DNA of 64,000 bases from a virus. The DNA lies in IMG/VR virus record IMGVR_UViG_3300031825_000369, one strand, 5' to 3'. A model generated the notes under the pieces. That model had not been told where the DNA came from, ran no database searches, and saw only the letters and a list, made by a program, of their open reading frames with translations. The translations under genes and the position numbers were made by a program. Positions 1-43,423 of this stretch are shown here, piece after piece. How positions within the stretch are numbered: position 1 is the stretch's first letter; each line of letters opens with the position of its first letter.

Positions 1-1917
1 GCGCTTCGGTCGGAGGTCGGCCCCGGGCGGTTCAGTCCCGCCGAAGCTGACGGGCTCGCCGATCACCGGCGGCGCGTTGCCCGCAGGGGGCTCCGCCCGT
101 ATATTTGCTGTAGAGCCAGTCGGTTCGGCAGGCGCAACTCCGGGAGTAGTCATCCGGCCCGTTCCGCCTTCGCCTGAGCCGACTGGCTCAAATTTTGTCA
201 GCTGATGATCGTAGTGGAGGCGCCCCGCACTCGTCTCCCGCGCCACGATCTCGACGTGGTAGTCCCTCTCGCCGATGCGCAGGTAATTCTCGAAACGCAG
301 ATAGGCCGGGACTGATCGGGCTTTGGCGGCGTCGCGGTTCGCCTCCGACCCCAGGAACCGCGCGCCCTCGATCAGCTCCGGCAGCGCATAGACCGCCTGG
401 AGCTTCTCGACGCTGGCACGCGGTTGCAGGGACTCTTTGAGGCCGGTCGTCGAGAATCCGATTTCCCATCCCGTCTCTCGATTGAGCACCCGGCGCGGAT
501 GGAGATGCGTCCTCGCCCACTCGCGCGTGGCCGCGTACCATCGGTGCGCTGGCCCGACTCGGTCGTTCACGACCTCGTCGCCGGCAATGTGCGGGTACTC
601 TACCTCTCGGTCGCCGACGAACTGGCGCGCGGTACGCACCTGCCCAGGCGGGAGTTGCGCCGGTCCACTGACCGATTCTGGTGCCGGACGCCGCCCGACC
701 TTCTTGGTGTACTCGGCGATGTCCGACACGCGCGACGAGTAGCGCGGCGCGTCTTCGGGCGAGACGCCGAACACCGACACGGGCTGGGACTGCGGCGACT
801 CGACCGGCGGCCGCCACGGCGACGACGGCCCTTCCGTTGGCGTCGGCGGGTTGCGCCGCGCCTCGAGTGCGGCGAGTCGGGCCGCCCCCTCGTCGCGCGA
901 GATGCGGCGAACGCCCGACTTCGGCACCGCCGGCGCCTCACTCACCGCGGCCGGAGACGGACCCTCGACGCCTTCGAGCGAGTAGGTCTCGTAGGCGCGG
1001 TCCGCCGGCGGCTTCGGGACCCGCGGCGCTTCCGGCGGGAGGTCCGCCCCAACCACGCGCGGCGCCTCCTCGCGGAGTGCGTCGGTGAGCTCGCGGTAGA
1101 GGTCCGCGTACGTCGCCTCGGCCCGCGCGATGTCCTTGCCGAGCGCGAGCCGCGGCACCTTCCCCGCCCCGGCGGGCCGGCGGGCCGGTGCCATCGCGGG
1201 GGCCGCGCGCCCCGGTGCCGGTCCCTTCGCTTCGCGCGCCACGTCGTCGAACGCGCGCACGAACCCCTCGGAGACGTCCGTGGTGCGCGCGGCGATCGCG
1301 CGACTCGTGGCGCCCGTGGCCTTTCCGGCCCCCCTTATCGTGCGGTCGAGCGTGGCGCCCATGAGTGCGCCTAACGCGGGATCGTCCGGCGACTGCACGG
1401 CGCCGAACCCGGCCGCCGCGGCGAGCGGACCCACGACCCGCGACGCCAGCGGGAACGCCGCGTTGGCCACCGTACCGACCGCGTCACGCCCCAACTGTTC
1501 GCGCGAGATCGCGCCGGGCGTGTCGCGGGTAATTGCCTGCCCAGGCCGCAGTCCGCCGGGAAGCGCGCCGACCTTCCCGAGCGTGTAATCCCCCTCGGCC
1601 ACCCGCCCACCCTCGACGGGTGCCGTGAAGAAGCGCACCGGGGCCATGACGACCGCATCCGCGATGGCCTCGGCCGTCTCCTTCGGATGCGTGACCATCT
1701 GTTTTATCGCCGTGCCGTAGCGCTTCAGGAGCGGTGGGCGGTCGGCGGTGTCCTCCTCTAGGAGATCCGAGTATGCCGCATCCGCGGTCAGCAGATCAGC
1801 GTACGGGTCTATGTCACTGGCGCGCGGTCGGATCTCCGGCCGCTGGCCCCGGCGCCTAACGCGACTCGAGTCGGGACGGGTCGGTGCTTGGCCTCCCCCT
1901 TTTTCGTTCCCGGTCAC
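1..1917 (-). CDS. 5' part of the large DNA-ejection/polyvalent protein (cut by the window edge; complete copy at 43420-46440)
   Basis: Same sequence as 44524-46440; GTG start overlaps the upstream TGA (GTGA). Confidence 0.8.
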   Translation of the reverse strand, partial: MTGNEKGGGQAPTRPDSSRVRRRGQRPEIRPRASDIDPYADLLTADAAYSDLLEEDTADRPPLLKRYGTAIKQMVTHPKETAEAIADAVVMAPVRFFTAPVEGGRVAEGDYTLGKVGALPGGLRPGQAITRDTPGAISREQLGRDAVGTVANAAFPLASRVVGPLAAAAGFGAVQSPDDPALGALMGATLDRTIRGAGKATGATSRAIAARTTDVSEGFVRAFDDVAREAKGPAPGRAAPAMAPARRPAGAGKVPRLALGKDIARAEATYADLYRELTDALREEAPRVVGADLPPEAPRVPKPPADRAYETYSLEGVEGPSPAAVSEAPAVPKSGVRRISRDEGAARLAALEARRNPPTPTEGPSSPWRPPVESPQSQPVSVFGVSPEDAPRYSSRVSDIAEYTKKVGRRPAPESVSGPAQLPPGQVRTARQFVGDREVEYPHIAGDEVVNDRVGPAHRWYAATREWARTHLHPRRVLNRETGWEIGFSTTGLKESLQPRASVEKLQAVYALPELIEGARFLGSEANRDAAKARSVPAYLRFENYLRIGERDYHVEIVARETSAGRLHYDHQLTKFEPVGSGEGGTGRMTTPGVAPAEPTGSTANIRAEPPAGNAPPVIGEPVSFGGTEPPGADLRPKR

Positions 1918-2651
1918 GGCGTGCCCGTGCGTTCCTTGAATCTCTGCGTCGCGATCGCCTTCCGCCGTTCCTTCTCGGCGTCGGGGATCGGGAGCGCCTC
2001 GATCTTCTCGAGGGCCCGCTCGTACGCGGCGCGCTCCGGGTCGACGGGCTCGGCGCCGAGATTGATGTTACCGGCCGCCCCGCCGGGCGCGGCCGACGTG
2101 CCCTGGCCCGTAATCGCGTCCCACTCTTCGGCGGCCTTCCGCGCCGCGTCGGCAGGCGCGAGCCCGGGTGCGAGGAGACTCGTCTTGGGGTCGCGTTGCG
2201 GCTTCGTGAGCTCAGGGACTCGGCCCGCGATGTACCGCTGTCGCGCGTCCTCGCGCGGCGGCCGCGGCGCGCGGTTCCGTGCGGTCTCCGTGATCCGGTC
2301 CCGCGCTTCGACACGCTGATTCGTCGACCGTAGATTCTCCAGGTCGATCCGATCGCGCTGCGCCTGGTCGCGCGCGGCGCGCGACTCGTCGCGGCGGAGC
2401 ATCCGCTCCATGGACTCCGCCGTCACGCGGCGCTGAGCTTCCTCCTTCCGGAACGCGAACTCGTCGTCCTCACGCTGCTGCTGCCGGCGCACGAGCGACT
2501 CGGCGAGGATGTCCTTTTGCCGCTGGCGCTCCGCCTCGGCCGCCTGCGCCTCGCGTTGCCGCCGCAGCTCCTCGCCCTGCATCCGGCCTTGCATGCCCTT
2601 CGCGAGCACGCCCGGGGCCGCGCGGAACAGCGCGCCTAAGAGTCCGGCCAT
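1914..2651 (-). CDS. Putative internal virion (ejection) protein, coiled-coil, 245 aa
   Basis: Charged helical ORF in the ejection-protein block with coupled neighbours; function inferred from position. Confidence 0.65.
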   Translation of the reverse strand: MAGLLGALFRAAPGVLAKGMQGRMQGEELRRQREAQAAEAERQRQKDILAESLVRRQQQREDDEFAFRKEEAQRRVTAESMERMLRRDESRAARDQAQRDRIDLENLRSTNQRVEARDRITETARNRAPRPPREDARQRYIAGRVPELTKPQRDPKTSLLAPGLAPADAARKAAEEWDAITGQGTSAAPGGAAGNINLGAEPVDPERAAYERALEKIEALPIPDAEKERRKAIATQRFKERTGTP

Positions 2652-2654
2652 GGC

Positions 2655-4079
2655 TTATCTCGTCGGGAGGAGGTCACGGACGGACGGCGGGGCGACGTAG
2701 GGAACCGCCGTCCCGCCGCCCCCGTTTGCGCTGCGTTGCATGAGGAACTGCGCGAGCAGATCCCCGACGCCTTGCATCGCCGCCTCGCCCTGCGCCGAGT
2801 ACTCGCGGCCCGACTGCGCGAGCGTGCTGGTCGGATCGTAGGCGCTCCCGATCCGAAACGCGTCGTTCATCTGGTCGCGCTGGCGCCCGTACGCGCGATC
2901 GAGCAGGTCCTCCCCCATGGCGCGCTCGCGCACCCGGTTGTTGATGGCGTCCTGATCGAGGCCGTACTGGTACGCGCGCTCGCCGCGGAGTTCGTCGCGG
3001 TCGGTGCGCTCGCTGCCGCTCACGCCTTGCTCGTAGCCGAACAGCGAGCCGAGGCGCGACTGTTCGCGCGCGAAGCCGCGGTCCCCAAGGTCATCGGCGT
3101 AATTCCGCTCGCCGACCGTATCGCCGTAGCTGTCGCGCTCGCGCCCGTAGAGGTCGCGCCCGAGCGTCAGCAGGTTGCCGAATTGCTCCTGGTTCGCGCG
3201 CGCGGCGTTGCCCGCGTACCCGGCCCCGATGCTCCCCACCGTGCCCATCACGTCGCGCGCGGCGCCGAGCTGCGCCAACCGATCGTCAAGCGTCTGCCCG
3301 GCGGATTCGGTCGCGAGCTGCCGCCGCGCGAGGTCGAGCTCGCGCTCGCGCTGGAGCTGCACGTCGCCGAGTTCGGACGTGGTCATCCCCGCGCCGATCC
3401 GGCCGAGCGCGGCCGCCCGGGACCCGACGTCGCGCATCTCCTTCTCGAAGCCCGGGCGCGAGCGCTCGAGGAGGAGGTCGTAGGCGTCGCCCGCGAGCTT
3501 CCCGCGGTCCGGGCCCGCCATCACCGCGTCCAAAGCACTCTTGACTTGCGTGTTGAGCCCGCCGATCGCGCCGTCGAACGGCGACCCGCCACCGCCCCCC
3601 CCGCCCTGCTGGGCCATCTTCAGGAGCTGGTCGTAGACGCCCTGGCTCTGCCCGGTGTTGGCCGGGCCGACCGCGCGGTATTGCATCCCCGGGAGATTCG
3701 CGAGCTGCTGCGCCGCCTGGGTGCTCATGCCTTGCGCGCCGGCGAGACGCTGCGACGCCTGCGGGGTGAACTGCTGCCCGATGAGACTGTTGCCCGGGCC
3801 GAACGACTGGCCCGGCTGCATGTTCGGCCCCCCCGTGCCGCCGCCCGCGCCGCCCTGCGGGATGAACGGTCCGCCGGTCTGCCCGCCCCCATACGGATTG
3901 ACCGGTCCACCGGGCGCCACCGGTGACGGGGGCCTCGGCCCGGGAGTCGGCGACGACCACACCGGGAGGGTCGGGCGCGTCGGGAGCGGGGTCGGGTTCG
4001 GGCGCGGGGCCTGCGTCGCCTGGCGGATGATGGAGGCAGGCGGCCGCGCCTGCTCGTCGGTCGTCGCGTAGCTGATCAT
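2655..4079 (-). CDS. Putative DNA transfer/internal virion protein, 474 aa
   Basis: Pro-rich N-terminus, Gly/Gln-rich helical body and RxRGxRAYQYGLDQ-type repeats typical of podophage ejection proteins; position after the pilot-like gene. Confidence 0.7.
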   Translation of the reverse strand: MISYATTDEQARPPASIIRQATQAPRPNPTPLPTRPTLPVWSSPTPGPRPPSPVAPGGPVNPYGGGQTGGPFIPQGGAGGGTGGPNMQPGQSFGPGNSLIGQQFTPQASQRLAGAQGMSTQAAQQLANLPGMQYRAVGPANTGQSQGVYDQLLKMAQQGGGGGGGSPFDGAIGGLNTQVKSALDAVMAGPDRGKLAGDAYDLLLERSRPGFEKEMRDVGSRAAALGRIGAGMTTSELGDVQLQRERELDLARRQLATESAGQTLDDRLAQLGAARDVMGTVGSIGAGYAGNAARANQEQFGNLLTLGRDLYGRERDSYGDTVGERNYADDLGDRGFAREQSRLGSLFGYEQGVSGSERTDRDELRGERAYQYGLDQDAINNRVRERAMGEDLLDRAYGRQRDQMNDAFRIGSAYDPTSTLAQSGREYSAQGEAAMQGVGDLLAQFLMQRSANGGGGTAVPYVAPPSVRDLLPTR

Positions 4080-4082
4080 GCG

Positions 4083-4820
4083 TCACCGGTTCGCGAAGGG
4101 ATTCTCACTGCGGAAGAGCGCGGACAGGTCTTCGCGCGGCGGGGGGGCTTGCAGGGCGAGCATCCGCGCGCGGTCCCGGAGCGGCGCCCCCGCCTGGTAC
4201 TCCGCCATGGCGATGTCGGACGCCTGGTTGCGCAGCTGGTCGCCGCGCCGTGCGTCCTTGGCGCTCTGCATGGCGCCGAGCGCCCCGACGCCGAGTTGCG
4301 CGACGTCGCCCCAGGGAATCTTGCTCAGCATGCCGCCCGCTCCACCGCCCCCGCCGAAGATGCTCGACAGCCCGCCGCCGCCACCGCTCGCCGCCGGTGC
4401 GCCACCGCCCGCGAGCAGGCTCGTCGCCGCGCCCTTCGCGCCGCCCGTCGCGTAGCCGGTGCCGGCCCGGAGCGCCGCGTCCTTGACACCATTCCCGATG
4501 ACCTGCTGGCCGGCCTGCTTGAGCCCGGCCTTCAACCCCTGACTCGCGATCGTCTTGATGCCGCCGCCGACCGCGCCGCCGACGCCACCGAGCGCCGCCC
4601 CGCTGGCCGCGCCGCCGAGCGCGTTCTTGAAGGCGTTGCCGCCCTTCTTCGTGGCCCCAGCGATCGCCCCGCCGAGCGCCGCGCCGGCCACGTTGCCAAT
4701 GCCGGGGATCATCGTGCCCAGGATCGGCAGCGCGATCGGCGCCGCCTTCTGCGCGACCTTGCCGAGCGGCCGGGTGACGTTTTTCTCGATCTTGCGTAAG
4801 CCCTTCGATAGCCAGGAAAT
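4083..4820 (-). CDS. Putative DNA pilot/ejection protein, 245 aa, apparent ATT start
   Basis: (M)SWLSKGLRKIEK N-terminus, then long Gly/Ala-rich hydrophobic segments (GAALGGAIAGA). GGGGGA lies 7 nt upstream of ATT at 4820. Confidence 0.7.
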   Translation of the reverse strand: MSWLSKGLRKIEKNVTRPLGKVAQKAAPIALPILGTMIPGIGNVAGAALGGAIAGATKKGGNAFKNALGGAASGAALGGVGGAVGGGIKTIASQGLKAGLKQAGQQVIGNGVKDAALRAGTGYATGGAKGAATSLLAGGGAPAASGGGGGLSSIFGGGGGAGGMLSKIPWGDVAQLGVGALGAMQSAKDARRGDQLRNQASDIAMAEYQAGAPLRDRARMLALQAPPPREDLSALFRSENPFANR

Positions 4821-4834
4821 TGTCGTATCCCCCG

Positions 4835-5710
4835 TTAGGGTAGGGTGAACAGCATCCCCGCGCTGCCCGCCTTCGTGGTGACGTTGTCGCCCACGGCCGA
4901 GGACTCCGAGGCGTGCTGGACTTGCAGCGTGCCGGCGTTCGCGCCGGTCCGCAGGATGCCCGTCACGCGCGCGACGAGCGACACCGCCGAGGCCGGCGAC
5001 GCGAGCGGCGACACGCGATCCCCGCTCGAGGTGCCGTACCCGACAAACGCCGCCCCCGCGCTGTCGCTGTTCGCCGGGATCGTCGCCGTGTAGGCGATCG
5101 TGGCCCCCGCCGGACAGGTCAGCGCGAGTTGATACCCGACGCTGACATTCGACGTCAGAAACAGGAGATAGAACTCGAACGCGTACTCCGTGTTGGCCGC
5201 GACCGCGAGACTCAGCCCCGTCACGTCCGTGAGCGCCGTGGAGCCCGTGGCATTCCCCACCGGGCCGACGTCGCTCCCGATCTTCACCGAGGCTTGGGTG
5301 CTGGGCGCGCTCGGCGTGTAACTCGGCAGGATCACCCACCCGTAGGTCGCGGGCGTGGCGCTCAGGACCGCCTGCAGCTGGTGCGTCTCGTGCTGCGTGG
5401 CCCACGCGAGCGTCGCCGCCCCGTCGATCGCCTGGCCCCCGGTGCCCTGGAGCGTCACCGTGTTGGCGCCCGCGTTCGTTTTCTTCGCGGTGAAGCGGCG
5501 CCCCAGCACCGTGCTGGCGTCGGGGAGCGTCAGCACCACCGCGCCCCCGGTCGTGTCGACGAGCAGCAGTTCGTCGGAGTCGACGACGGTGACCGACGCG
5601 GTGACGAGTCGCGCGGCGTAAGTGCCGGGCTGCGCCGCGATGTCGCGTTGCCACCGCCGGAGCGTGTCCTCCGGCTTCTCGCCGGACACGACCGTGAGTT
5701 TCGGCGCCAT
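4835..5710 (-). CDS. Tail fibre/baseplate-like protein, 291 aa
   Basis: VDTTGGAVVLTLP...KKTNAGANTVTL...IDG module common in phage fibre proteins; beta-rich C-terminal domain. Confidence 0.7.
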   Translation of the reverse strand: MAPKLTVVSGEKPEDTLRRWQRDIAAQPGTYAARLVTASVTVVDSDELLLVDTTGGAVVLTLPDASTVLGRRFTAKKTNAGANTVTLQGTGGQAIDGAATLAWATQHETHQLQAVLSATPATYGWVILPSYTPSAPSTQASVKIGSDVGPVGNATGSTALTDVTGLSLAVAANTEYAFEFYLLFLTSNVSVGYQLALTCPAGATIAYTATIPANSDSAGAAFVGYGTSSGDRVSPLASPASAVSLVARVTGILRTGANAGTLQVQHASESSAVGDNVTTKAGSAGMLFTLP

Positions 5711-5919
5711 TAGGGGACCGTCTCCGGCGCATCCGTGACGTCGAGCACGATCTCGTTGCTATCGGTGTCGATCGCTTGCAGGTGCCCCGCCGTTATGCCC
5801 GCGCCGGCCACCACGACCGCCACCGCGTCCGCGAACCGCCGCGCCGCGGCTTCCGCTTCGCGTTGTCGCTCCAGCACCATCGCGATCTGCGCGGGGTGCG
5901 CTTTCACTCGCTGCATCAT
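5710..5919 (-). CDS. Small hypothetical protein (possible fibre chaperone), 69 aa
   Basis: MMQRVKAHP...; the start overlaps the upstream stop (ATGA) and the stop overlaps the downstream start. Confidence 0.55.
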   Translation of the reverse strand: MMQRVKAHPAQIAMVLERQREAEAAARRFADAVAVVVAGAGITAGHLQAIDTDSNEIVLDVTDAPETVP

Positions 5920-6503
5920 GGGGTGCTGTCCTCCACCCAGGCCGAGGCCCAGGAGCCGGTCCCGGAGAAGCGTTCGTGCCGCGCGCGGAGTGAGCCGCCC
6001 GCGACGCCGCCGGCGAGGATGATTTCCGCCGACGGGACGCCGTCGCTGACGAACGTGTTGTCGGACAGCACCGCCCCGCCGCCATCGCGGAACTGATAGC
6101 GGGTCGTGCAGAACGTTTCGCTCGGGGTGACGGTCCCGCCGTAGGCCCCGCCGCCCAGGTCTCGGAAGTCGACCCCTGCCGGCGCGGCAGGCGGGTTGAT
6201 GAATGGGTCCGGCGTCGACACCGGCGCCCACTCCGACGCCACGCCCTGCCGCTCCAGCCGCACGCGGTAGCTCCCGGCTTCGGTGTACCCAACGATGTCG
6301 ACGCTGAACGACGTGCCGCTCGCGCTCCCGGTCCCGAACGCCGACCAGACGCCGGAGCCGGGCGCCGATTCCTTCTCGACCCGCACCGTCAGCGGGCCCG
6401 GATTCCCGGCCGTGTTCCCGGTGAACCGCGTCGAGCTCTCCCACTGCGAGGCGAGGAGCCCCGTGGGCTTGGCGACGTGCGTGCCGTGCATCATCCCGAA
6501 CAT
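5916..6503 (-). CDS. Tail accessory protein with beta-sandwich (Fn3/Ig-like) domains, 195 aa
   Basis: Start MFGMMHG at 6503; YRVRLERQGVASEW and LRARHERFSGTGSW resemble Fn3 F-G strands. Confidence 0.6.
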   Translation of the reverse strand: MFGMMHGTHVAKPTGLLASQWESSTRFTGNTAGNPGPLTVRVEKESAPGSGVWSAFGTGSASGTSFSVDIVGYTEAGSYRVRLERQGVASEWAPVSTPDPFINPPAAPAGVDFRDLGGGAYGGTVTPSETFCTTRYQFRDGGGAVLSDNTFVSDGVPSAEIILAGGVAGGSLRARHERFSGTGSWASAWVEDSTP

Positions 6504-6508
6504 GCGCG

Positions 6509-7204
6509 TTAGGCCGTGTAGTTGGCGCCGACCATCGCGCCGAAGTAGGTCGCGCCGTCGTAGTAGAGCGCGATCAGGTCGACCTTGCTCGCCGTCGTCG
6601 TGAGCGTCGGCGCCGTGCCGCCCGACCAGTGCACCGCCGCCGGCCAGGTGATCGTCCGCGAGCCCGTGGCGTCCTGCGCGATCCGCAACAGGTAGTGCGC
6701 CCCCGCCTGCGGGTTCGAGAGCGTGAGCGTGCAATTCGCCGTCAGGGTCAGCTTTTGGGAGTTCCCGCTATTCCAGTCGATCGTCTTCGCCGCACCGCTG
6801 TTCCCGGCGTCGACTTGCGCGCTGTACCCCTGCCCGGCCGCGAGCGCGAGGTTCCCGGCCGTGACCGCGATTCCACCAGCCACGACCGACACGCCGCCGG
6901 CTTGCACGCTGATGCCGCCGCTCGCGACCGTCAGCCCGGTGATCCCGCCTAACGTGCCGGTGATCGTGCTGTTGCCGGTGACCGTGATCCCGCCGGCCGA
7001 CACCGTGATCCCGCCCGTCGAGACCGTGATCCCGACGCCCGCGCCCGGCGTGAAGGTCAGGTTCGCCGTGACGGTGCGGGCCACGTCGGTAAACAGCGCG
7101 TAGCTGTTCACCGTCGTCCGGATCGTGTCGAAGTTCTGGTTGACCTGGGCCGACTGGATGGTCGTCCCGGAGGAGAACGCGGTCAGGGCGCTGATGAGTG
7201 GCAT
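6509..7204 (-). CDS. Tail fibre adaptor protein, 231 aa
   Basis: N-terminal FSSGTTIQSAQVNQNFD; GGITV repeats; C-terminal IDWNSGN...QDATGSRTITWP..VHWSGGTAPTLTTTASKVDL fibre domain. Confidence 0.8.
   Translation of the reverse strand: MPLISALTAFSSGTTIQSAQVNQNFDTIRTTVNSYALFTDVARTVTANLTFTPGAGVGITVSTGGITVSAGGITVTGNSTITGTLGGITGLTVASGGISVQAGGVSVVAGGIAVTAGNLALAAGQGYSAQVDAGNSGAAKTIDWNSGNSQKLTLTANCTLTLSNPQAGAHYLLRIAQDATGSRTITWPAAVHWSGGTAPTLTTTASKVDLIALYYDGATYFGAMVGANYTA
6860..7035 (-). repeat. Coding tandem repeats (GGITV-like heptads) in the fibre shaft
   Basis: Repeated cgtgatcccg units encode GITVSTGGITVSAGGITVT...GGISVQAGGVSVVAGGIAV. Confidence 0.75.
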
Positions 7205-7208
7205 GGCG

Positions 7209-8849
7209 TTAGTAAGTCGAGGGGCGTTCGTCGAGCGGCGCGGCCACCGCCGAGACCTGCTGGAGCTGCCACCGCTCCCCGAGCTCGGCGTGCGTGAGCT
7301 CCACTTCGAGCCAGCGGCCCGTCACCTGCCGCAAGCCGGCCGGGAGATGCCGCTCCCCGAGCTCGGTCCCCCACGTGGCTTGGTCCCACAGCGACACGTC
7401 CCACCGCGCGTCCGAGCCCGACGAGGTGACGGAGAGCGGCGTCGCGAGCGGCCAGGTCCCGCGCGGCGTCGCGACGGTCACGGACACGCCGGTCAGCGTC
7501 GTGGGAATGCGGAGCGTCGTATCGAGCCGCGTCCAATGCTTGTCGAGCGCGACGGTGGCGCCCAGGTGGCCCGTCCGGACGGTGTGCTGGATCGCCACCG
7601 CGCCCGCGGCGAAGCCGTCATCCCAGACGTTCCCGGTCGGGACGTCGTGCCAGTAGCAATACCCCTCGTCCACCGTGGCCGACGTCGAGCCCCCGCCGTG
7701 CACGAGCCGCCGCTCGCCGGCCGCGTTCTTCGCCGTCGCCAGCACCGTCGATTGCCAGCCGCGCCAGACGCCTTCACAGAGCCCGGTCTTGGGGTTGCAC
7801 ACCACATACGCGTTCGGCTCGTCGTAGCCCGTCTCGGCCACGCCGACGACCACCCGCTCGCCCTGCGGCTCGCCGTCCCAGAGCGCGATCTCCGCGCGCT
7901 CGAACTTGAGCGGGTTGAGCGCCGTCAGGGCGTTCCGCGCCCCGATCCCGACTTCCTCGAGCGCCACGCCGCGCGCCCGCATGACGCGCCGGTCCGAGGA
8001 GAGGAAGTACACATCCTGATCGACCACCATCACGGCCGCGGGCGAGCGACAGCCCACGTGCTCCGAGACCGCCTCGCGCGTGCCGCTCGAGCGAAAGTCC
8101 GTCGTGACTTCGCCGGTCACGAGCGTGACGCTGTTCTGGCGGAACAGGTAAATCGCGTCGTTGGTCGCGGCCCCGGCGAAGAACGGCGCCGCGTTGGTCT
8201 GGCGCAGCGTCCAGGCGTTGTTGTACCCGCCGGCCTCATAGCCGGTGTTGGGCGTCGCGGGCTCGGACCAGACGATCGTCGTGCGCTCGGTGCTCTTGAT
8301 CCCGAACAGCTGGCCGTAGTACACCCAGGGCGCGCCGTAGAGCACCGGCGCGTTCGTGAGCTTCGTCAGGCCCGCGCCCGCGGTGCCGTCCCACGCGAAC
8401 GGCGTGTTGACGCCGTCCGAGATCACCAGCAGGTCGGCGAAGTTGACGGCGTACACCTTCGCGCTCGCCGACAGCGTGATGGCGGAGCCCGCGAGGTTCG
8501 CGGTCGTGAGGACCTTGGTCCACGCGTCGCCGCCCCAGTCGTAGGTGTAGACTTCGCCCCCCACGACCGCGACCGTGTACTCGGTGCCGTTGACCTTCGT
8601 GAACTGCGCAACCCGCTGGACCGCGCGCGCGCCGACGCTCCCGAGCTGCGCGCCCATCTGGCTAAAGCCCGGGCGCCCTTCGACCATTGGGGTCTCGGTG
8701 TCGGCGTCGCGGATCCAACAATTCACGAGGCGCCCGGCCGCGTCGCCGCGGTTGTCGGCCGACTGGTCGCGATCGTGCTGCCGGACCGGCGGGCCCCAGT
8801 CGTAGCGCCGCGAGCGGGCCGCCGCGGCCACGTAGGCGCGCGCCGTCAT
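7209..8849 (-). CDS. Tail nozzle/stabilisation protein (P22 gp10 / T7 gp12-like beta-propeller), 546 aa
   Basis: Size; beta-propeller-like repeats (IVWSEP, VGCRSPAAV..VDQDVYFLS); C-terminal WDVSLWDQATWG...GRWLEVELTH; follows the adaptor gene. Confidence 0.75.
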   Translation of the reverse strand: MTARAYVAAAARSRRYDWGPPVRQHDRDQSADNRGDAAGRLVNCWIRDADTETPMVEGRPGFSQMGAQLGSVGARAVQRVAQFTKVNGTEYTVAVVGGEVYTYDWGGDAWTKVLTTANLAGSAITLSASAKVYAVNFADLLVISDGVNTPFAWDGTAGAGLTKLTNAPVLYGAPWVYYGQLFGIKSTERTTIVWSEPATPNTGYEAGGYNNAWTLRQTNAAPFFAGAATNDAIYLFRQNSVTLVTGEVTTDFRSSGTREAVSEHVGCRSPAAVMVVDQDVYFLSSDRRVMRARGVALEEVGIGARNALTALNPLKFERAEIALWDGEPQGERVVVGVAETGYDEPNAYVVCNPKTGLCEGVWRGWQSTVLATAKNAAGERRLVHGGGSTSATVDEGYCYWHDVPTGNVWDDGFAAGAVAIQHTVRTGHLGATVALDKHWTRLDTTLRIPTTLTGVSVTVATPRGTWPLATPLSVTSSGSDARWDVSLWDQATWGTELGERHLPAGLRQVTGRWLEVELTHAELGERWQLQQVSAVAAPLDERPSTY

Positions 8850-8859
8850 CGGTGGCGCC

Positions 8860-9537
8860 TCATCGGAGCGGCCCCCGCCACCAGAAGCGCGACGTCCCGA
8901 GCGCATACGCCGGGTCCGAGCCCTGCCCGAACATCTGGCCCTTCAAGCTGCCGATGATCCCGGTGTCGCCGGGGTTCATCGGGTCGCCCCAGCACGTGTG
9001 CTGGAACAGCTGCAGGAAGGGCGAGGGGTCACGCAGCCCGCCCTGCCGCGCCCACTCGGCCACGGCGTCGTACACGAGGAGGATGCGCGCCGGCTCCGGC
9101 TGCAGGGTGGGCTCGACCGACGCCGAGATCGACACCGGCTGACGGACGTACCGCGTGTAGAGCGTGTCGGCGAAGGTCTGGGTGCGGCCGTTGGGCATGC
9201 GGATCCGGTTCCCCTCGAACACGAAGTCCGCGTGCGGCGAGAAGTCCGCGCCGGGGATCAGGATGCGGCCACTGCGCCCGACCCGGATCTCGGCTTCGCC
9301 GAGCGGCCAGTCCGAATTCGGGAACGTGTAGGTGGCGCCGCCGTCTGCCGTCGACATCGCGGCCGGCGCCGTCATGAGGACGTGCGGGACGTGCGACGCG
9401 AAGAGCCGCGTCACCTTCTGCTGCGCGTTCGAGAGCAGCTGGTACCACTGCGCATCGCTCGTGACGTCGCCCTGCGTCGGCTCCTGGGCGGTGTCCTTGC
9501 AGCGCTGGAGGATGTCGGCAGAATCCCAATCGCTCAT
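8860..9537 (-). CDS. Head-tail adaptor (tail tubular protein A-like), 225 aa
   Basis: Start MSDWDSADILQRC at 9537; LLSNAQQKV helix, Y.FP.D motif, LLVYDAVAEW; position upstream of the nozzle gene. Confidence 0.7.
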   Translation of the reverse strand: MSDWDSADILQRCKDTAQEPTQGDVTSDAQWYQLLSNAQQKVTRLFASHVPHVLMTAPAAMSTADGGATYTFPNSDWPLGEAEIRVGRSGRILIPGADFSPHADFVFEGNRIRMPNGRTQTFADTLYTRYVRQPVSISASVEPTLQPEPARILLVYDAVAEWARQGGLRDPSPFLQLFQHTCWGDPMNPGDTGIIGSLKGQMFGQGSDPAYALGTSRFWWRGPLR

Positions 9538-9541
9538 CGCG

Positions 9542-9742
9542 CTAGCCTCGCAGCCCGACGAACCGGCGGCCGCGGCGCCGCCGCGTGGTCGGCGTGCCCG
9601 GCGCGGGCGGGTCGCCCGCGGTGGCGTAGGGATACACGCCCGCGAGCTGCCGCCGGTCCGGGACGCTCGCGAGCGAGCCATCGGGCGGAGGCGCGTAGAC
9701 CTCCGCCACGAATCGGCGCTTCTGTTCCGTGTCGATCGCCAT
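9542..9742 (-). CDS. Small virion-associated peptide, 66 aa
   Basis: Fills the operon gap with an RBS; DRRQLAGVY motif and Arg-rich tail. Confidence 0.6.
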   Translation of the reverse strand: MAIDTEQKRRFVAEVYAPPPDGSLASVPDRRQLAGVYPYATAGDPPAPGTPTTRRRRGRRFVGLRG

Positions 9743-9753
9743 AGGGGCCGCCG

Positions 9754-10518
9754 TTAGGCGTCGGCTCCGCGGGTGAAGGTGGTCGCGTCATCCGTCAGGG
9801 CCGCGGTCCCGAGCGCCGTCACGCCGTCCGCCTTGAACAGCGTGTCGGTCGTCGCCGTCACGGTGCGCTTGTGGCGGAACCGCTGGTAGAGGTAGCGGAC
9901 CATCTTCGGCAGCGTCTGCGCGCCGGTCGACGGGAGCGCCGCGAGCTCCGCCTCGGTCGCGAACGCCGCGTCGGTGATGGCCGCGGCCGCGATCGCCCCG
10001 ACGCTCGCATCGATGCGCCCGCTCACGAGCGCCGCCGGCAACCGGGTCTGGATGTCGTTGGTGTCGGCGACGATCGCCGCGAGCTGGGTCGAGTTGCTGT
10101 CGATCTCGGTCCGGACGGCCGCCGCCGTCACGCCCGCCGCGAGCGGGTCGTAGCCCGCCAGCGCGATCGTCACGCCGTCGTCGACGGTGTTGGCCCCGGT
10201 CCACGAGATCACGACCTCATCGACGCCCGTCGCGAGCGCCGCGTTCGGGAGGTCGAGCCGGTAGAGGCCCGGCGCGTTGGTGGCGTCGACCTCGACGAAG
10301 CCGCCCGTCGCCCACGCGCCCGTGACGGTCTGGGTGGCCAGCGTGATGGCCGCCGCGGCCGCGCCCGCGCGCGTGTAGTAGACCTTGAGCCCCGCCGTGC
10401 CGAACGCGAGCCCGGTGAGGCCCATCCCGACCGGCGTGGTCGCCGAGCCGCGGATGAAGACGTAGATCGTCTTGCTGGTCGCGTCCTTCGCTAGCACTCG
10501 TGACATGAGGAGTCCCAT
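9754..10518 (-). CDS. Virion accessory/fibre-like protein, about 250 aa (start at 10518 or 10506)
   Basis: GLTGLAFGTAGLKVYYTRAG...GGFVEVDATNAPGLYRLDLP motif seen in phage structural proteins. Confidence 0.65.
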   Translation of the reverse strand: MGLLMSRVLAKDATSKTIYVFIRGSATTPVGMGLTGLAFGTAGLKVYYTRAGAAAAAITLATQTVTGAWATGGFVEVDATNAPGLYRLDLPNAALATGVDEVVISWTGANTVDDGVTIALAGYDPLAAGVTAAAVRTEIDSNSTQLAAIVADTNDIQTRLPAALVSGRIDASVGAIAAAAITDAAFATEAELAALPSTGAQTLPKMVRYLYQRFRHKRTVTATTDTLFKADGVTALGTAALTDDATTFTRGADA

Positions 10519-10534
10519 GGAGGCCGAAGAGAGA

Positions 10535-14691: not shown

Positions 14692-14710
14692 GGGAGGGTT
14701 CGGTTAGGCG

Positions 14711-15659: not shown

Positions 15660-15688
15660 GGAATCGGAATCGTTAGGGTCCGGATGCG

Positions 15689-32216: not shown

Positions 32217-32361
32217 CGGGAACCCCCCGCGCGCGAAAGTCGTACGAAACGTCGTACGCTGCGATTTTTTTGGTCCCGGGCGGCCGCGCGCTCCGTACGC
32301 TTCCTAACGCTTCCTACTCTGAGCGCGAGCCGTTGACCCCGCCGTTGCGGGAGCGACGTTT

Positions 32362-32413
32362 GACTTAGGATCCAGTGGGGCAACCCGTCCGGGTTCGAGT
32401 CCCGGCTTTCGCA
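32362..32413 (+). other. attP core = 3' half of tRNA-Leu(UAG)
   Basis: GA-CTTAGGA (TAG anticodon loop)-TCCAG, long variable arm TGGG-GCAA-CCCG, T-arm CCGGG-TTCGAGT-CCCGG, acceptor CTTTCGC-A. There is no D-arm; it lies 22 bp from the int stop. Confidence 0.88.
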
Positions 32414-32434: not shown

Positions 32435-33685
32435 TTAGTCATCCCTCCTGAGCTCGGCGCGCGGGCGCTCCTCGTCCGCAGTCGCACGAGCGGTCGTAGT
32501 CGGATTCACGAGGTAAGGCACTTTCGGTTTGCCTTCGCCTTTCGATTCGGTCGCGCGTTGCACTTCGGCGAGCCGGTCCTCGAGCGTGCGCGTGATGTGG
32601 GCGTAGGTCTCGGTGACCTGGTAGACCGTGTTCCCGAGGAGATCGGCGATCCACTCCCACGACATCCCCTTGAGGCGCCATCGCACCGCGCACGAGTGGC
32701 GCGCGTCCTTGAGCGTGTAGTCCACCACGCCGGCGGCCTTGCACCCCTGCTCGTGATGGTGATGGAGCATGTGCCGCGTCACCCCCGGGAACACGTCATC
32801 GTTAGGCCCGAGGGCCATCTCGGCGACGTAGGCGCGGAGCCGCGGCAGCGCCCAGGGTTCGATGAACACAACGCGGTTCACCAGCCGGCGCGACGTCTTC
32901 CCCTTCACGTGCGCCGTGCCCTGGTCCAGGTCCAGGTGCCGGAGCTTGAAGTGCGGCGGGAGCGCGTACCCGACGTCCGTGGTGCTCGCCATAACGAACG
33001 CCAGCGCCGCCCGGATCCGTGCGGCCAGGGGCCGCGCCTCGCGCGTCGGGTTGACCGCGTCGACGATCGCCCGGTCGGTCGCTTCCGTCTCCCACCGCTC
33101 GCGCTTCTTGTTCTTGGCCGGCGACGCAACCCGCCCCTTGATCGGGTTCTCCGTGAGCACGGTCATCTCCAGCAGGTACGCGACGAAGGAGTAGAGGGCG
33201 TACAGGTACTTACGCCGTGTCCCGCTCGTGACGTCGGGCAGCTCCGAGAGCCATCGGCTCACGGTCGCCGGCGTCAGGTCCGCGCTCGTGAACGTGCCCG
33301 TGACCAGCGTCTCCACCTGCGCGCGGTACGTCGTCGCCGTGGTGGGGTTGTCCGTGTTCCGCCGGACCCACTTCCCCCACGCGTCGAGATGCCCCGCGAG
33401 CGGGACCGCCGAGAGCTCGGCGCGGAGATCGTCGAGCCGGCGCGGCGCGTAGAACTGCTCGTAGAGCCGGAACAGCGTCAGCTTGCGCCCCTGCACCTTC
33501 CGCCCCTCGGCGACGGCGTACAGGAACTCGCGCGTCTCCGCGCGCTCGGCGAGATGGTCGCGCATCCGCACGAGCTCCTTGAGCATCGCGTCGCCGTCGA
33601 TCCCCGCGCTCCGCTGCACCAGCTTGCCCGTTCGCGTCGGGAGGTAAATCTGCCCGCGCGAGCCCTTCATGAACGCGGCGCTCAT
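32435..33685 (-). CDS. int: Tyrosine recombinase/integrase, 416 aa, atypical active site
   Basis: SAM-like core-binding domain (TATTYRAQV, TRRKYLYALYSF), KGKT, YTLKDARHS, IADLLGN, TETYAH; adjacent to attP. Confidence 0.88.
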   Translation of the reverse strand: MSAAFMKGSRGQIYLPTRTGKLVQRSAGIDGDAMLKELVRMRDHLAERAETREFLYAVAEGRKVQGRKLTLFRLYEQFYAPRRLDDLRAELSAVPLAGHLDAWGKWVRRNTDNPTTATTYRAQVETLVTGTFTSADLTPATVSRWLSELPDVTSGTRRKYLYALYSFVAYLLEMTVLTENPIKGRVASPAKNKKRERWETEATDRAIVDAVNPTREARPLAARIRAALAFVMASTTDVGYALPPHFKLRHLDLDQGTAHVKGKTSRRLVNRVVFIEPWALPRLRAYVAEMALGPNDDVFPGVTRHMLHHHHEQGCKAAGVVDYTLKDARHSCAVRWRLKGMSWEWIADLLGNTVYQVTETYAHITRTLEDRLAEVQRATESKGEGKPKVPYLVNPTTTARATADEERPRAELRRDD

Positions 33686-33993: not shown

Positions 33994-34745
33994 GGAGCCA
34001 CGACCCACGGGGCGATGCCGACCTTCCGAATCTCGCGCCGGTCGACCAGCACCCACACGCCGATGTGCTCGCCGATCTCCGCCTGACGCCGCTCCGTCGC
34101 GGGCCAGTCGATGCCGTCGAACGCGACCATGCGCATGTGCTCCCAGAGCTTGTCGGAATTGCCGTGGTTCCACAGCGTCGGATCGTCGGGCTCCCGCTCG
34201 ATGTCCGGCTCGCTCTGCTTCATGATGGTGAGCCGGTGCGTCCACTTGTTGTTGAGGTAGTCGAGCATCTTCGCCACCAGCCGCGCCGACACACGCCCCG
34301 TGCGGCACGTGATCGAGCAGTACGGCGTGTGAAACGACTCCCGCCACCCGCCTAACAGGTGCCGGTCGCAACGCGGACACCGGTCGGGACTCCACACCCA
34401 CTCGCCCTCGTCGCGCCGGTAGACAATGGCGGTCCGATCGGTGAGCACGAACGCCATCACGGAGGCGGTGCACCGCTGCTCCATGAGGCAGCTTGCGTTG
34501 AGGTCGAACTGGTGCGAGCCAATGGCATCGCTGATGTCCCAGTCGACGCCGATCGCGGCGCCGATGTACTCTCGGCCCTCCTCGCTCGTTGGTGAGACGT
34601 GAGGCGCGACGCGCTGCAGATAGCGTGTGGCGGCGTCGGCCATGGTGAGCAGCGCGAGCACTTCCTTGGTCGGGACCGGGCGCGCGGTGCGCCCGGTCGG
34701 TGGCTGCGTGCGGGACGCGTCCCGCTCGATCGCTATCGCGGTCAT
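33990..34745 (-). CDS. Hypothetical Zn-finger protein, 251 aa (paralog B)
   Basis: DRCPRCDR...YCSITC; ATGA overlap. Confidence 0.65.
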   Translation of the reverse strand: MTAIAIERDASRTQPPTGRTARPVPTKEVLALLTMADAATRYLQRVAPHVSPTSEEGREYIGAAIGVDWDISDAIGSHQFDLNASCLMEQRCTASVMAFVLTDRTAIVYRRDEGEWVWSPDRCPRCDRHLLGGWRESFHTPYCSITCRTGRVSARLVAKMLDYLNNKWTHRLTIMKQSEPDIEREPDDPTLWNHGNSDKLWEHMRMVAFDGIDWPATERRQAEIGEHIGVWVLVDRREIRKVGIAPWVVAP

Positions 34746-36222: not shown

Positions 36223-36224
36223 GG

Positions 36225-36509
36225 TTAGGCGACCCTCGCGACCGGCTGGCATTCCTGCGCGCGGAGCCGGTCCGCTTCCTCGCGCAGGGCGCGCACGCGC
36301 GCCGTATCCGTTTCGTGCAGGGCGAACAGGTTGCCGCCGCACGTCCACCACTCCAGCCCGAGCGACTCGAGCACGCCGATCTGTGCGCGACGCTCGTTCG
36401 AGTGCGTGAAGTGGGGCATCAGCACGCGCCCCTCCGCCTTCACGCCCTCGATGTCGCGCTCCGCGTCCGCTGCCGTCCGCGGTGCGATGTCCGATTCCCG
36501 TTGCTTCAT
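36225..36509 (-). CDS. Hypothetical protein, 94 aa
   Basis: GAGGGG RBS; fills the early operon. Confidence 0.55.
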   Translation of the reverse strand: MKQRESDIAPRTAADAERDIEGVKAEGRVLMPHFTHSNERRAQIGVLESLGLEWWTCGGNLFALHETDTARVRALREEADRLRAQECQPVARVA

Positions 36510-37110: not shown

Positions 37111-37291
37111 CGCCCTCGATCGCTAAGGTTGGCCATCACTCTCGGTCGTGGCCGCGTCGTCGCGGGGCCCTACCCCCGCCCGTCAGCCGGACACACGCCG
37201 CACGAACCCATGTCCTTCTCTCCCGTGTCCCGAGACCCTGCCCCGCGCCTAACGCCGCACACGCGGACCATTGTTAGGCGCGCGCCGCGCG

Positions 37292-37627: not shown

Positions 37628-38368
37628 ATGTCGACATTTGCGGAGCGCCTCGGGATGGCGCTCGTGCGGAAGGGCCATAAAACCGGAAGCCGCTACACCC
37701 AGACCGAACTCGCGAAGGCGATCGGCGTCGAGCGGAACACGGTGAACGGGTGGATGCGGCGCGGATCGTTGCCCCGGGATCCGGCCATCCTCTCGCGGCT
37801 CGCGCGAGAGCTCGACGTCAACATCCCGTGGTTGACGGAGGGCACGGGCCCGGGATTCCCCGGGAGCGTACGCCGCGACGAGGCAGCGGTCGACGCCCTG
37901 CGGGATGCGCCAAAACCGCCCTTGAGCGGCGGGGCGCGTGTGTGGATTCAGGAGGAGTTGTTGGACTACGCGCGCGCCGGGGCGACCCAGCAGGAAGTCG
38001 ACTTTGCGAAAGCGTTGCTCGAGTCCGTCCCGCTCTGGGCGTTCTACTCGAACGGCGTCGATGACTACGAGACCGAGGCGGGAGTGTTGCGCGGGCTCCG
38101 GTCAATCGGATCGCTCATTCGCTACGAGCTCCGGCTCCGGGGGCGGCCGGTGCAGACGCGCCCGTTGGTCGACTACACCGCAGCCATGTCCGCGATTCTC
38201 TCTCTCGACGAGTTCGCAGGTCCGGCGAACGCCGGACCTGCGGGCACGAAGTCCGGTGCCCCGTCCGTGTTGGGCAGCGCCGCCCAGCGCGCGGCGGCCG
38301 CGAAGCGCGAGCGGGCGGAGGAGCGGGCCGCCGAGCCGCCGCGCCGGCGACGGCCGAAAGGCGCCTAG
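37628..38368 (+). CDS. cI: CI-like immunity repressor, XRE HTH, 246 aa
   Basis: TFAERL...YTQTELAKAIGVERNTVNGWMRRGSLP...LARELDVNIPWL..G; divergent arrangement. Confidence 0.85.
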   Translation: MSTFAERLGMALVRKGHKTGSRYTQTELAKAIGVERNTVNGWMRRGSLPRDPAILSRLARELDVNIPWLTEGTGPGFPGSVRRDEAAVDALRDAPKPPLSGGARVWIQEELLDYARAGATQQEVDFAKALLESVPLWAFYSNGVDDYETEAGVLRGLRSIGSLIRYELRLRGRPVQTRPLVDYTAAMSAILSLDEFAGPANAGPAGTKSGAPSVLGSAAQRAAAAKRERAEERAAEPPRRRRPKGA

Positions 38369-41575: not shown

Positions 41576-43423
41576 CGTCTTCGCGCGCACCGGCTGACGC
41601 GCGTTCGCCCGGATCGTCCCGATCACGTTCTCCAACCAGAGGCGCCGCTCGTCGTCGGACATCGCGGCGTACTCGGCGTCGCCGACCATCGCGGCGAGCG
41701 CCTGCATTGTCTCCCGTCCAGCGTCCCGCACGAACGCCTCGTAGTCCGCGCGCGCGATCGGCGTGCTCCGCCCCCCTTCCCGCATCGTCCGCGACGGCAT
41801 CCCGATGGAGACGCCGAGCCGGCGGAGCTCGGTCAGCACCGGCGAGTCGCTGGCCCGCCGCATTGGGAACGGGCTCGCGACGGCCGCGACCCGCTCCGCC
41901 GTCGACTTCCGCACGAACTCGCCCGTCGGGGCCTGAGCCTTCGGGAGCGCGAACGACCCGCCGGGGACCCGCGAGAGCACGCGCTCGCCTAACGTGCGGG
42001 CGTCCCGCGCGTACGGGTCCGCGGCGCGGGTGGCCTGGCCGAGCACCGCCGGCACCGGGATCTGGCTCACCAGGAGCGACGACGCGGCCCGCTCGTCGCC
42101 GAACGCATCGATGAGGCGTTTGACGCCGTCCAGGTAGCTCTGCTCGGTCAGGACATGCCCCGCCGCGAGGGCCCCGCGCACCGCCTGCTCCGGCACCCCC
42201 GCGTCCGGCTCTTCGTCGCGGATGCGAGCGAGCTGCGCGCCCATGAACAGTGGGACCGACGCGGGCCCGAGCGACAGTAGGCCGACCCAGTGATCGCCGA
42301 GGCGCACGGCGAAGGGAATGCGCCCGTCGGCCCGCCACTGGGCGCGCTCCTTCGCGTCCTCCGGCATCGGCCCGGTGATGCGCCCCTCCTTGTAGAGCGC
42401 GAGCCCGGCCGCCCACATTGCGGTCCCAACGCCGGCCGTCGCGAGCGCGCGCGCCCGTTGCGCCTGGTTCCCCAGCACGTTCGGCGACAGGAGCCCGAGC
42501 GGCGAGACGGCCGCCATCTTGTACGCGACCGACGACGGCACACCGACGAACGGGAGGTTTTGCTCGAGCATCACCGTCCCGACCTGCGCGCCCCGTTGCT
42601 TGGCGCGCTGCGCCGCCTGCGCGTAGGGCGAGGCCGCGGGATCCGGCTCGGTGTCGGCGAGTCGCCGCGTCGCCTGTTTCGCGCCGGTCGCGAGTTTCGA
42701 GAGGAGGTTGCGGTCCTTGAACGTCGCGTAATGCGCGTCGTCCGTCGCGCGCGCGAGCATCTCCTCGGTCGGATGCTCGAAGTATTGCCGCGCACGGGCC
42801 GCGCGTTCCGCCCCCGTCGCCCCCTCGCGGATCGCCAGCAGCTTGGACTGCATATAGATCGATCCGTCGAACGCCGCGCGCCAGAACGGGCGGTCCGCCG
42901 CTTCGAGCACCGCGAACGCGCCATCGACGAGCGTCTGCGTCACCGGGCTCGCGTACTTCACCCGCTCGACGTCGAGCACGTTGGTAATCGCCTCGGCGTC
43001 GAGCCGCGCCGAGAGCTCCTGGACGAAGTTGCGGACCCGCTGGCCGATCGGCTGGCCGGCCGTCGCCGCGTACGCGCCGCGGACCGGCGCCGTCCCCTGC
43101 TTGAACCCCCGCCACATCGCACCCACCCCGTCGGCGTCGAGGGCGTTCGCGACCTCGCGCAGCTCGCGAGGTTTCACGCGAAACCCCGTGCGCGCGGAGC
43201 GCCCGAGCGAGAGCAGGTAATCGACCCCCGCCTCGGCCGGCTGCAGCACGAGCGCGCGCATCCCGCCCCATGACGTGTTGCCCGCGACCGCTCGCATCGG
43301 CGTCACGAGCGAGCCCACGAACCCGGCCTTGATGGCGGTCGTGGCCTTCTCGGTGCCGGAGACGGTGCGGATCTCCGCGACGAACCGCGCGAGCTTGATC
43401 CTCGCCAGCGCGCAGGCGCTCAT
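41555..43423 (-). CDS. Large internal virion/polyvalent protein C-terminal part (LPD38-like), 622 aa
   Basis: GGAGG RBS plus ATGA overlap at 43423; SYLDGVKRLIDAF...QATRAADPYARD...LSRVPG...LP....TGE pattern. Confidence 0.7.
   Translation of the reverse strand: MSACALARIKLARFVAEIRTVSGTEKATTAIKAGFVGSLVTPMRAVAGNTSWGGMRALVLQPAEAGVDYLLSLGRSARTGFRVKPRELREVANALDADGVGAMWRGFKQGTAPVRGAYAATAGQPIGQRVRNFVQELSARLDAEAITNVLDVERVKYASPVTQTLVDGAFAVLEAADRPFWRAAFDGSIYMQSKLLAIREGATGAERAARARQYFEHPTEEMLARATDDAHYATFKDRNLLSKLATGAKQATRRLADTEPDPAASPYAQAAQRAKQRGAQVGTVMLEQNLPFVGVPSSVAYKMAAVSPLGLLSPNVLGNQAQRARALATAGVGTAMWAAGLALYKEGRITGPMPEDAKERAQWRADGRIPFAVRLGDHWVGLLSLGPASVPLFMGAQLARIRDEEPDAGVPEQAVRGALAAGHVLTEQSYLDGVKRLIDAFGDERAASSLLVSQIPVPAVLGQATRAADPYARDARTLGERVLSRVPGGSFALPKAQAPTGEFVRKSTAERVAAVASPFPMRRASDSPVLTELRRLGVSIGMPSRTMREGGRSTPIARADYEAFVRDAGRETMQALAAMVGDAEYAAMSDDERRLWLENVIGTIRANARQPVRAKTLRTKRQ

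Follow-up and report, generated by a model that had tools for sequence, protein, structure and literature searches.

Why does a phage genome carry one non-palindromic octamer, CGTTAGGC/GCCTAACG, far more often than its base composition predicts, and does this word belong to the phage or to the bacterium in which the phage resides? The question is posed by the IMG/VR record IMGVR_UViG_3300031825_000369, a stretch of viral DNA of 64,000 nucleotides (hereafter, the window), for which a preliminary description, made from the letters alone, had noted the repeated octamer and proposed that it is a DNA-level signal, perhaps common to an entire host lineage. The analysis supports CGTTAGGC being a genome-wide word of the host clade that is mirrored by the prophage, that is, a host marker and no phage regulatory system. 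The complete explanation, in which this host-clade word is also best compared to an uptake-type tag of self DNA, is one that we favor tentatively, at somewhat less than an even chance.

An over-represented octamer in an integrated phage and its host clade

The window is filled by a circularly read genome of 44,523 bp: the sequence repeats at an offset of 44,523 with 0 mismatches, so positions 44524-64000 are a repeat pass, and the octamers at 45892-63142 duplicate those at 1369-18619. Each genome contains 15 copies of the octamer (8 on the plus strand and 7 on the minus strand, bearing out the earlier observation that both strands are used) and 26 copies of the GTTAGG core, counts that are identical to those first reported. 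The word is about 20-fold over-represented in the phage; a Markov model of order 0 predicts 1.57 copies (the original rough estimate was about 1.5), models of orders 1-3 predict 0.54-0.86 copies, and at these latter orders CGTTAGGC ranks first among all octamers of the genome. The excess also survives a codon-aware null in which synonymous codons were permuted while the intergenic copies were kept fixed (3.6 +/- 1.1 copies, with a maximum of 8 in 500 shuffles).

Two tests appear to point the other way, toward chance or ordinary codon or composition bias as the source of the excess. At Markov orders 4-6, 7.3-14.9 octamers are expected in the phage and the excess disappears; this loss is, however, circular because the high-order models are trained on the pentamers of the motif itself, to which 26 of the 30 TTAGG pentamers of this small genome belong, and the maximum-order ranking is likewise uninformative, the signal being absorbed by the motif's own sub-words. 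Among the 1,680 permutations of the same composition, GATCGTCG and CGATGTCG reach 19 and 18 raw copies in the phage, respectively, but both are built from common codons, which makes raw permutations a weak null; in 800 kb of related host DNA, CGTTAGGC is the first of the 1,680 permutations (457 vs 326). Given that the word employs the rarest codons and is nevertheless the top octamer in four independent genomes, and given the result of the codon shuffling, we regard the probability of a chance or compositional origin as negligible. The next most enriched octamer of the phage, GCTCAAGG/CCTTGAGC, is present in 14 copies genome-wide, of which 13 are in-frame G-CTC-AAG-G (Leu-Lys); it was rejected as a second signal, being attributable to ordinary codon bias, with a count within reach of the codon-shuffled null.

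The window represents a temperate phage of the P22-portal type that is integrated in the tRNA-Leu(TAG) gene of an uncultured bacterium of the family Gemmatimonadaceae. A portal identical to that of the phage is encoded on a metagenome contig of 153,730 bp (a 629-kb contig with the prophage is also on record), and host DNA was reached by stepwise walking along the 153-kb contig. Colinearity with the window stops on both sides at a 17-bp att core, CCACTGGATCCTAAGTC (32362-32378), that lies beside the tyrosine integrase gene (32435-33685, minus strand) and is identical at both prophage-host junctions; the tRNA-Leu(TAG) gene is intact at one junction, where it is rebuilt with a phage-borne 3' part (window 32362-32413; L003:21011-21092). 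The att core at both junctions together with the rebuilt tRNA gene therefore identifies a temperate phage caught in the integrated state. The phage flanks on the contig encode HtrA-like, flagellar, two-component and MprF-like host proteins, the last of which shows 74-77% identity to homologs from metagenome-assembled genomes of Gemmatimonadaceae.

The flanks of the phage's own host contain 8 copies of the word in 29.8 kb, or 0.27 per kb, compared with 0.34 per kb in the prophage (p = 0.68); thus, the prophage carries CGTTAGGC at the density of the flanking DNA of its host. The whole genomes of three close relatives of the host contain 5004, 4372 and 3749 copies of the word vs 373, 325 and 271 copies of a control word, the reversed form of CGTTAGGC, which amounts to approximately one copy per 1.5 kb and a 13-14-fold excess over the control. 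In the cultured strain Gemmatirosa kalamazoonensis KBS708, the initial 50 kb of the two megaplasmids contain 30 and 20 copies of the word and 0 of the control, and the densities in the close relatives and these megaplasmids span 0.2-0.65 copies per kb. More distant genomes show the reverse relationship between the two words, with 57 copies vs 454 of the control in one genome of Gemmatimonadales and 2 vs 48 in one of Longimicrobiales. Of 151 sampled genomes of the phylum, most are depleted in CGTTAGGC and about five are clearly enriched; similarly, 57 loci of the MprF neighborhood, drawn from many taxa, include five that are rich in the word (0.44-0.63 per kb), all from the closest relatives, whereas 43 have none and 9 have one. 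In a moderately enriched genome (G145), the top octamer is the same CGTTAGGC, and a dialect search in this genome found no variant of the word. The earlier suggestion of a host-lineage-wide word, tentatively assigned to Gemmatimonadota, thus holds, the host being a member of Gemmatimonadaceae whose close relatives have thousands of copies; as a refinement, the word is restricted to a subclade within this family rather than common to the phylum. Neither spelling of the word, CGTTAGGC or GCCTAACG, was found in the literature searched.

In word-poor Gemmatimonadota genomes, we observed tight same-strand clusters of 3-6 copies within approximately 1-6 kb (G073:C12:90891-94102, G073:C23:120-3236, G073:C27:24852-28039, G078:C55:62-6383 and G125:C51/C89). 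Such clusters may stem from contigs of word-rich bacteria that were misbinned, from islands acquired by transfer or from phages.

Two related phages, L084 and L085, whose portals are only about 50% identical to that of the phage in the window, also have CGTTAGGC among their top octamers, with 13 copies in 22.4 kb (62% GC) and 8 copies in 20.7 kb (65% GC), respectively. One copy per 22 kb is found in a 39%-identical relative, which is integrated in another genome (3 Mb). What is new in these observations is the mapping of a prophage in a word-rich host along with the equality of phage and true-host densities; two further new points, described below, are that junction copies are semi-conserved between diverged phages and that the word can be linked to the methylome published for a cultured word-rich strain.

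Distribution of the word within host and phage DNA

In 400 kb of the word-rich genome G001, CGTTAGGC is the top octamer, with 252 copies vs 13 expected at order 3 (z = 66). The flanks of these 252 copies are near background, as are those of the 26 phage copies, in which only a G after the word is preferred. A repetitive extragenic palindrome or a miniature inverted-repeat transposable element was considered and rejected, there being no conserved flanks or palindrome around the core in the 252 host and 26 phage copies.

Every permitted register and both gene orientations are occupied in host DNA, at the price of rare TTA, CCT, AGG and CTA codons: in G001, 60 copies are read as xCG-TTA-GGC, 43 as G-CCT-AAC-G, 24 as C-GTT-AGG-C and 18 as xGC-CTA-ACG, and 75 are intergenic. 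Gene ends are affected as well, with 25 of 55 host TAA stops having the form GCC-TAA-CG. Where the encoded peptide leaves a synonymous choice, the host uses the word in 18% of the [APST]-L-G tripeptides, 44% of P-N-[VADEG] and 38% of Ala-stop gene ends, and the phage in 12.5%, 15% and 27% of the same three opportunities; overall, the word fills 10-44% of the synonymous opportunities in the host and 6-27% of those in the phage.

The genes of the phage lie nearly all on the minus strand, so that two placements can be told apart: copies with the mRNA spelling GCCUAACG are found at gene junctions, and those with the mRNA spelling CGUUAGGC are intragenic, mainly as xCG-TTA-GGC. Six of the 15 TAA stops of the phage fall within CCTAAC, 1-33 nt upstream of the next start, and further copies occupy short spacers. 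The rarity of TTA that had been claimed for this genome is real: there are 8 TTA codons among 1,145 Leu codons, and 6 of these precede GGCG. Comparison with the related phages shows that the junction copies are semi-conserved, the portal gene ending in GCC-TAA-CG in two phages and in GCC-TGA-CG in the third, and the 242-aa gene ending in the full word here and in a 7/8 match in each of the related phages; no internal coding copies are common to the three phages.

The orientation of the word over 800 kb is balanced (239:218, or 52:48) while the cumulative GC skew rises monotonically, and orientation is uncorrelated with local skew. The absence of replication polarity argues against two of the comparisons originally offered, those with Chi and with FtsK-orienting polar sequences (KOPS). 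The copies are spaced more evenly than random (coefficient of variation 0.82 vs 0.99 +/- 0.06; 1 in 2,000 random placements is as even). Among orthologs with at least 80% amino acid identity, the word is identical in 88% of cases vs 27% for other 8-mers, and below 80% identity, in 35% vs 12.5%. Words that differ from it by one transition are also enriched (CGTTAGGT 5.7-fold and TGTTAGGC 2.9-fold). Thus, CGTTAGGC acts at the level of double-stranded DNA, being free with respect to orientation, non-polar, evenly spaced and maintained per site wherever coding tolerates it, and the host-wide counts and placement support the earlier inference of a DNA-level signal.

Candidate functions of the word

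By analogy, the best functional counterpart of CGTTAGGC would be a self tag of the DNA uptake type, a comparison to which we give a little under even odds. The closest likeness is to the uptake signal sequences (USS) of Pasteurellaceae, with the 9-bp core AAGTGCGGT, and the DNA uptake sequences (DUS) of Neisseriaceae, with GCCGTCTGAA, its dialects and the ComP receptor. Like CGTTAGGC, these are short non-palindromic words that occur about once per 1-2 kb in both orientations and with no replication polarity, in spacers as well as in the tolerated frames of genes; they are evenly spaced, limited to clades, surrounded by a halo of one-mismatch words and present in co-evolved prophages. Unlike them, CGTTAGGC has only 8 bp, unconserved flanks, few inverted terminator pairs and no dialects in the sampled genomes, and its phages are at full host density.

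Under the uptake analogy, a sequence-specific DNA-handling machine of the host cells would favor word-bearing DNA and act on every resident replicon, be it chromosome, megaplasmid or prophage. Uptake biased toward the word, together with homologous recombination, would push copies into every site that tolerates them, and a temperate phage of long residence would come under the same drive while it persists as a prophage in a lysogenic population; the junction copies of the phage would then be tolerated placements (GCC-TAA-CG) and no phage regulatory sites. Stated more generally, CGTTAGGC may be the tag of an undescribed self-DNA recognition system in a clade of Gemmatimonadaceae, read by an uptake receptor or by a non-polar nuclease or recombination regulator, such that temperate phages must carry the host density to persist; we would put this possibility close to, and still short of, an even chance.

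Several points weigh against the uptake-type interpretation. We know of no uptake bias, competence or receptor shown for any member of Gemmatimonadota, and ComEC, being shared by word-rich and word-poor genomes, does not discriminate between them. Housekeeping genes (Ddl, ThyX, parts of MetH, PP2C) and no mobile elements occupy the two longest stretches of G001:C4 that lack the word (14.7 and approximately 20 kb), so that these offer no contrast with foreign DNA. The word is kept about three times better than other 8-mers between orthologs, a large effect estimated from phylogenetically non-independent pairs, and the sample of the true host is limited to 29.8 kb. Uptake sequences do accumulate in prophages with co-evolution, and DUS density falls drastically in genomic islands (PMC7371117). 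Three diverged phages at or near host density, unlike DUS in islands, fit a selective benefit inside the cell at least as well as a transformation drive.

Among the alternatives, the word could be the binding site of an abundant nucleoid-associated or chromosome-organizing protein that marks all replicons at near-regular intervals. Even spacing, independence of orientation, lack of polarity, presence on chromosome, megaplasmids and prophage, and per-site conservation all fit such a role, but no nucleoid protein is known to force an exact 8-mer into coding sequence where rare codons are the price, the analysis yielded no candidate, and the sharp clade boundary would require a clade-specific protein; we consider this reading unlikely. 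A Chi-like function, under which an AddAB-like helicase-nuclease would read the word as self, with degradation attenuated and recombination stimulated, and under which phages lacking a recombinase or inhibitor would be selected to carry the host density, strikes us as quite unlikely. Chi (GCTGGTGG in E. coli) is, like CGTTAGGC, an asymmetric octamer common to the host and to phages without a recombination module, at host-like density; Bobay et al. in 2013 reportedly described Chi-rich Rec-minus lambdoid, P1-like and T5-like phages. It is, unlike CGTTAGGC, co-oriented with replication, dependent on RecBCD or AddAB and over-represented only about 2-5-fold, whereas CGTTAGGC is non-polar, about 20-fold over-represented and found in genomes without RecC. 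The phages studied here have the word at about the density of the host, just as Rec-minus lambdoid phages have Chi (PMC3784561), and the phage of the window showed neither a recombinase nor an inhibitor of the Gam/Abc2 type, nor a methyltransferase; since family matches are missing for many of its genes, absence is not established. The balanced orientation over 800 kb and the 8:7 ratio in the phage nevertheless contradict co-orientation with replication; RecC is absent in 5 of 5 genomes; the weak AddB-like nuclease matches in G001 and G003 are below the cut-off, and such matches are also present in a word-poor relative; the observed/expected ratio of about 20 compares with published values of 2.3-2.4 for Chi in E. 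coli and Salmonella; and the phage copies are spread evenly and do not cluster between a replication origin and a packaging site. Gene-content tests for RecC and for AddB of both types did not discriminate word-rich from word-poor genomes. KOPS and other architecture-imparting sequences, whose pronounced strand skew reverses at ori and dif, were rejected given that no strand skew is seen over 800 kb.

A word akin to the cyanobacterial highly iterated palindrome HIP1 (GCGATCGC), tied to cytosine methylation or regenerated by a sequence-specific mismatch-repair drive, seems to us very unlikely. HIP1 shares with CGTTAGGC its hyper-abundance, quasi-regular spacing, conservation at orthologous sites, imposition on coding sequence and unsettled function, and CGTTAGGC has a CpG at one end; unlike HIP1, which is palindromic and overlaps methyltransferase sites, CGTTAGGC is asymmetric, and its one-transition neighbors are enriched, not depleted as under a Vsr-type drive. 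The SMRT (single-molecule, real-time) methylome of KBS708 lists only RGATCY, ATGCAC and CCAGN7TCA, and CGTTAGGC is not among these motifs (PMC3974934); an N6-methyladenine or another readily detected methyltransferase site is thus disfavored, but 5-methylcytosine, for which SMRT sequencing is a poor detector, may be present at the word. Finally, the copies could be regulatory sites of the phage itself, bound by a repressor in the manner of stoperators or coupling translation across gene junctions. Approximately 10 of the 26 phage copies overlap a stop codon 1-33 nt upstream of the next start. In the divergent control region, a -35-like hexamer is directly adjoined by one copy, and two copies in inverted arrangement are found close to the repressor gene; moreover, in cluster A mycobacteriophages, repressor sites known as stoperators, which are asymmetric, 13 bp long and situated in short gaps between genes, are similarly numerous at the gene junctions of temperate phages, with one at a promoter. 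Stoperators, however, are phage-specific and oriented one way relative to transcription, whereas CGTTAGGC is host-wide, is found in both orientations relative to transcription and is intragenic too, and the share of host TAA stops within the word shows junction placement to be generic. The thousands of copies in host chromosomes and megaplasmids, and the 8 in the phage's own host flank, exclude a phage-specific regulatory word as the explanation, and we give it a vanishingly small probability. Of the systems named at the outset, therefore, uptake sequences fit best, and Chi, KOPS and an N6-methyladenine methyltransferase site are disfavored.

To our knowledge, very few groups of bacteria are documented to have words iterated throughout the genome for which a reader is known (USS, DUS, Chi, KOPS and HIP1). 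CGTTAGGC belongs to an abundant, poorly studied soil phylum and reflects a force strong enough to impose the rarest codons; that this force acts on prophage, megaplasmid and chromosome alike constrains the mechanism. Temperate phages equilibrate to the word density of the host, which offers a practical, sequence-only marker of phage-host relationships for uncultured viruses of Gemmatimonadaceae. Hypotheses on uptake, binding and modification are directly testable because the word is present in a strain that has been cultured and sequenced and whose methylome is published; if self-DNA recognition is indeed involved, this would be the first such system outside Proteobacteria and Cyanobacteria, accessible in Gemmatirosa kalamazoonensis.

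A side observation concerns the AddB-like region of G001 (C15:10927-12122), which consists of two short open frames (436 and 258 aa) vs frames of about 1,100 aa in G003 and G004; the gene may be broken or misassembled.

Individual copies and their surroundings in the phage

The TAA stops formed by the word, as listed in the preliminary description, are confirmed at 4835, 6509, 9754, 14711 and 18253, and the one at 21791 exists in the ENA gene call. The copies concerned, all on the plus strand, are a hexamer at 4834-4839 (mRNA CCC-TAA-CG, stop of a 291-aa gene), octamers at 6507-6514 (GCC-TAA-CG, 231-aa gene, next start 4 nt on) and 9752-9759 (GCC-TAA-CG, 254-aa gene, next start 10 nt on), a hexamer and an octamer in tandem at 14703-14716 (GCC-TAA-CG, the 242-aa gene, with a homologous stop that is 7/8 word-identical in both related phages), an octamer at 18251-18258 (GCC-TAA-CG of the portal gene, identical in L085 and GCC-TGA-CG in L084) and a hexamer at 21790-21795 (52-aa gene). 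The plus-strand hexamer at 36224-36229, originally taken to be intergenic, is instead the TAA stop (36225) of a 94-aa gene, GCC-TAA-CC, with the next start 1 nt on.

The other copies described as intergenic, at 15672, 17043 and 37248/37273, do lie in spacers: a plus-strand hexamer at 15672-15677 follows a 426-aa gene, 12 nt ahead of the start of a 76-aa gene, and is a full octamer in the corresponding spacer of L085; a second one, at 17043-17048, lies in the spacer of the 392-aa and 426-aa genes. A minus-strand hexamer at 32303-32308 is in the spacer adjoining attP. The inverted pair CGCCTAACG...GTTAGGCG (37246-37281) combines an octamer at 37247-37254 with a hexamer at 37273-37278 in a spacer near the CI-like repressor region (repressor gene at 37628-38368, plus strand), with about 18 nt between the copies and an inner CCGC/GCGG hairpin. 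The arrangement resembles the inverted DUS pairs of Neisseria; close inverted pairs are rare in the host (1 among the 252 copies in 400 kb of G001).

Within genes, the in-frame TTA-GG copies claimed at 1370, 6948, 18620, 34351 and 41988 were all recovered on the minus strand. Four are octamers read as xCG-TTA-GGC (Leu-Gly in the first case), at 1369-1376 in the gene for an LPD3 polyvalent protein, 6947-6954 in the 231-aa gene, 18619-18626 in the portal gene and 41987-41994 in the gene for a 622-aa internal virion protein; the fifth, at 34351-34356 in a 251-aa gene, is a hexamer read as TG-TTA-GGC. The C-GTT-AGG-C register is used by octamers at 26594-26601 (plus strand, in a 71-aa plus-strand gene) and 29461-29468 (minus strand, in the AEP-primase gene), and by frame arithmetic also at 1854-1861 (minus strand), which lies either within the LPD3 gene as extended at its N terminus (1006-aa ENA call) or in the spacer upstream of the shorter call. 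The remaining intragenic copies are on the plus strand: octamers at 32800-32807 in the integrase gene (G-CCT-AAC-G), at 25869-25876 in codon 2 of a 75-aa gene of the divergent control region (G-CCT-AAC-G) and at 30235-30242 at the 3' end of the Dda/PIF1 helicase gene (xGC-CTA-ACG, primase start 18 nt on), and a hexamer at 22371-22376 in a 133-aa gene (CCT-AAC).

The last copy, a plus-strand hexamer at 25899-25904, immediately follows a TTGACA -35-like hexamer. The latter is part of a near-consensus sigma-70-type promoter, TTGACA-N17-TAATAT (25893-25921, plus strand), located between the minus-strand genes and a small plus-strand pair (25970-26714), and the GTTAGG copy makes up the first six bases of the promoter spacer.

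With respect to orientation, 11 of the 13 copies of L084, in which all genes point one way, read CGTTAGGC in the sense direction, vs 7 sense and 8 antisense copies in the phage of the window and a ratio of 3:5 in L085.

The gene products of the phage include a P22-type portal, a large terminase, a D5-type primase-helicase, an AEP primase, a Dda/PIF1 helicase, the CI-like repressor, the tyrosine integrase and an endolysin-like protein; no tRNA genes were found within the phage itself. A megablast search with 20 kb of the window against a phage collection and single-protein portal scans of viral and genome contigs gave no match, and the sole find of a tblastn search was a portal of 33% identity. 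The phage also encodes an LPD3 "large polyvalent protein" domain protein of 933-1006 aa (43420-46221, minus strand, wrapping to 1-1698) and a 178-aa LPD29-domain protein (25970-26506, plus strand), which together place polyvalent-protein modules in a podovirus-type temperate phage.

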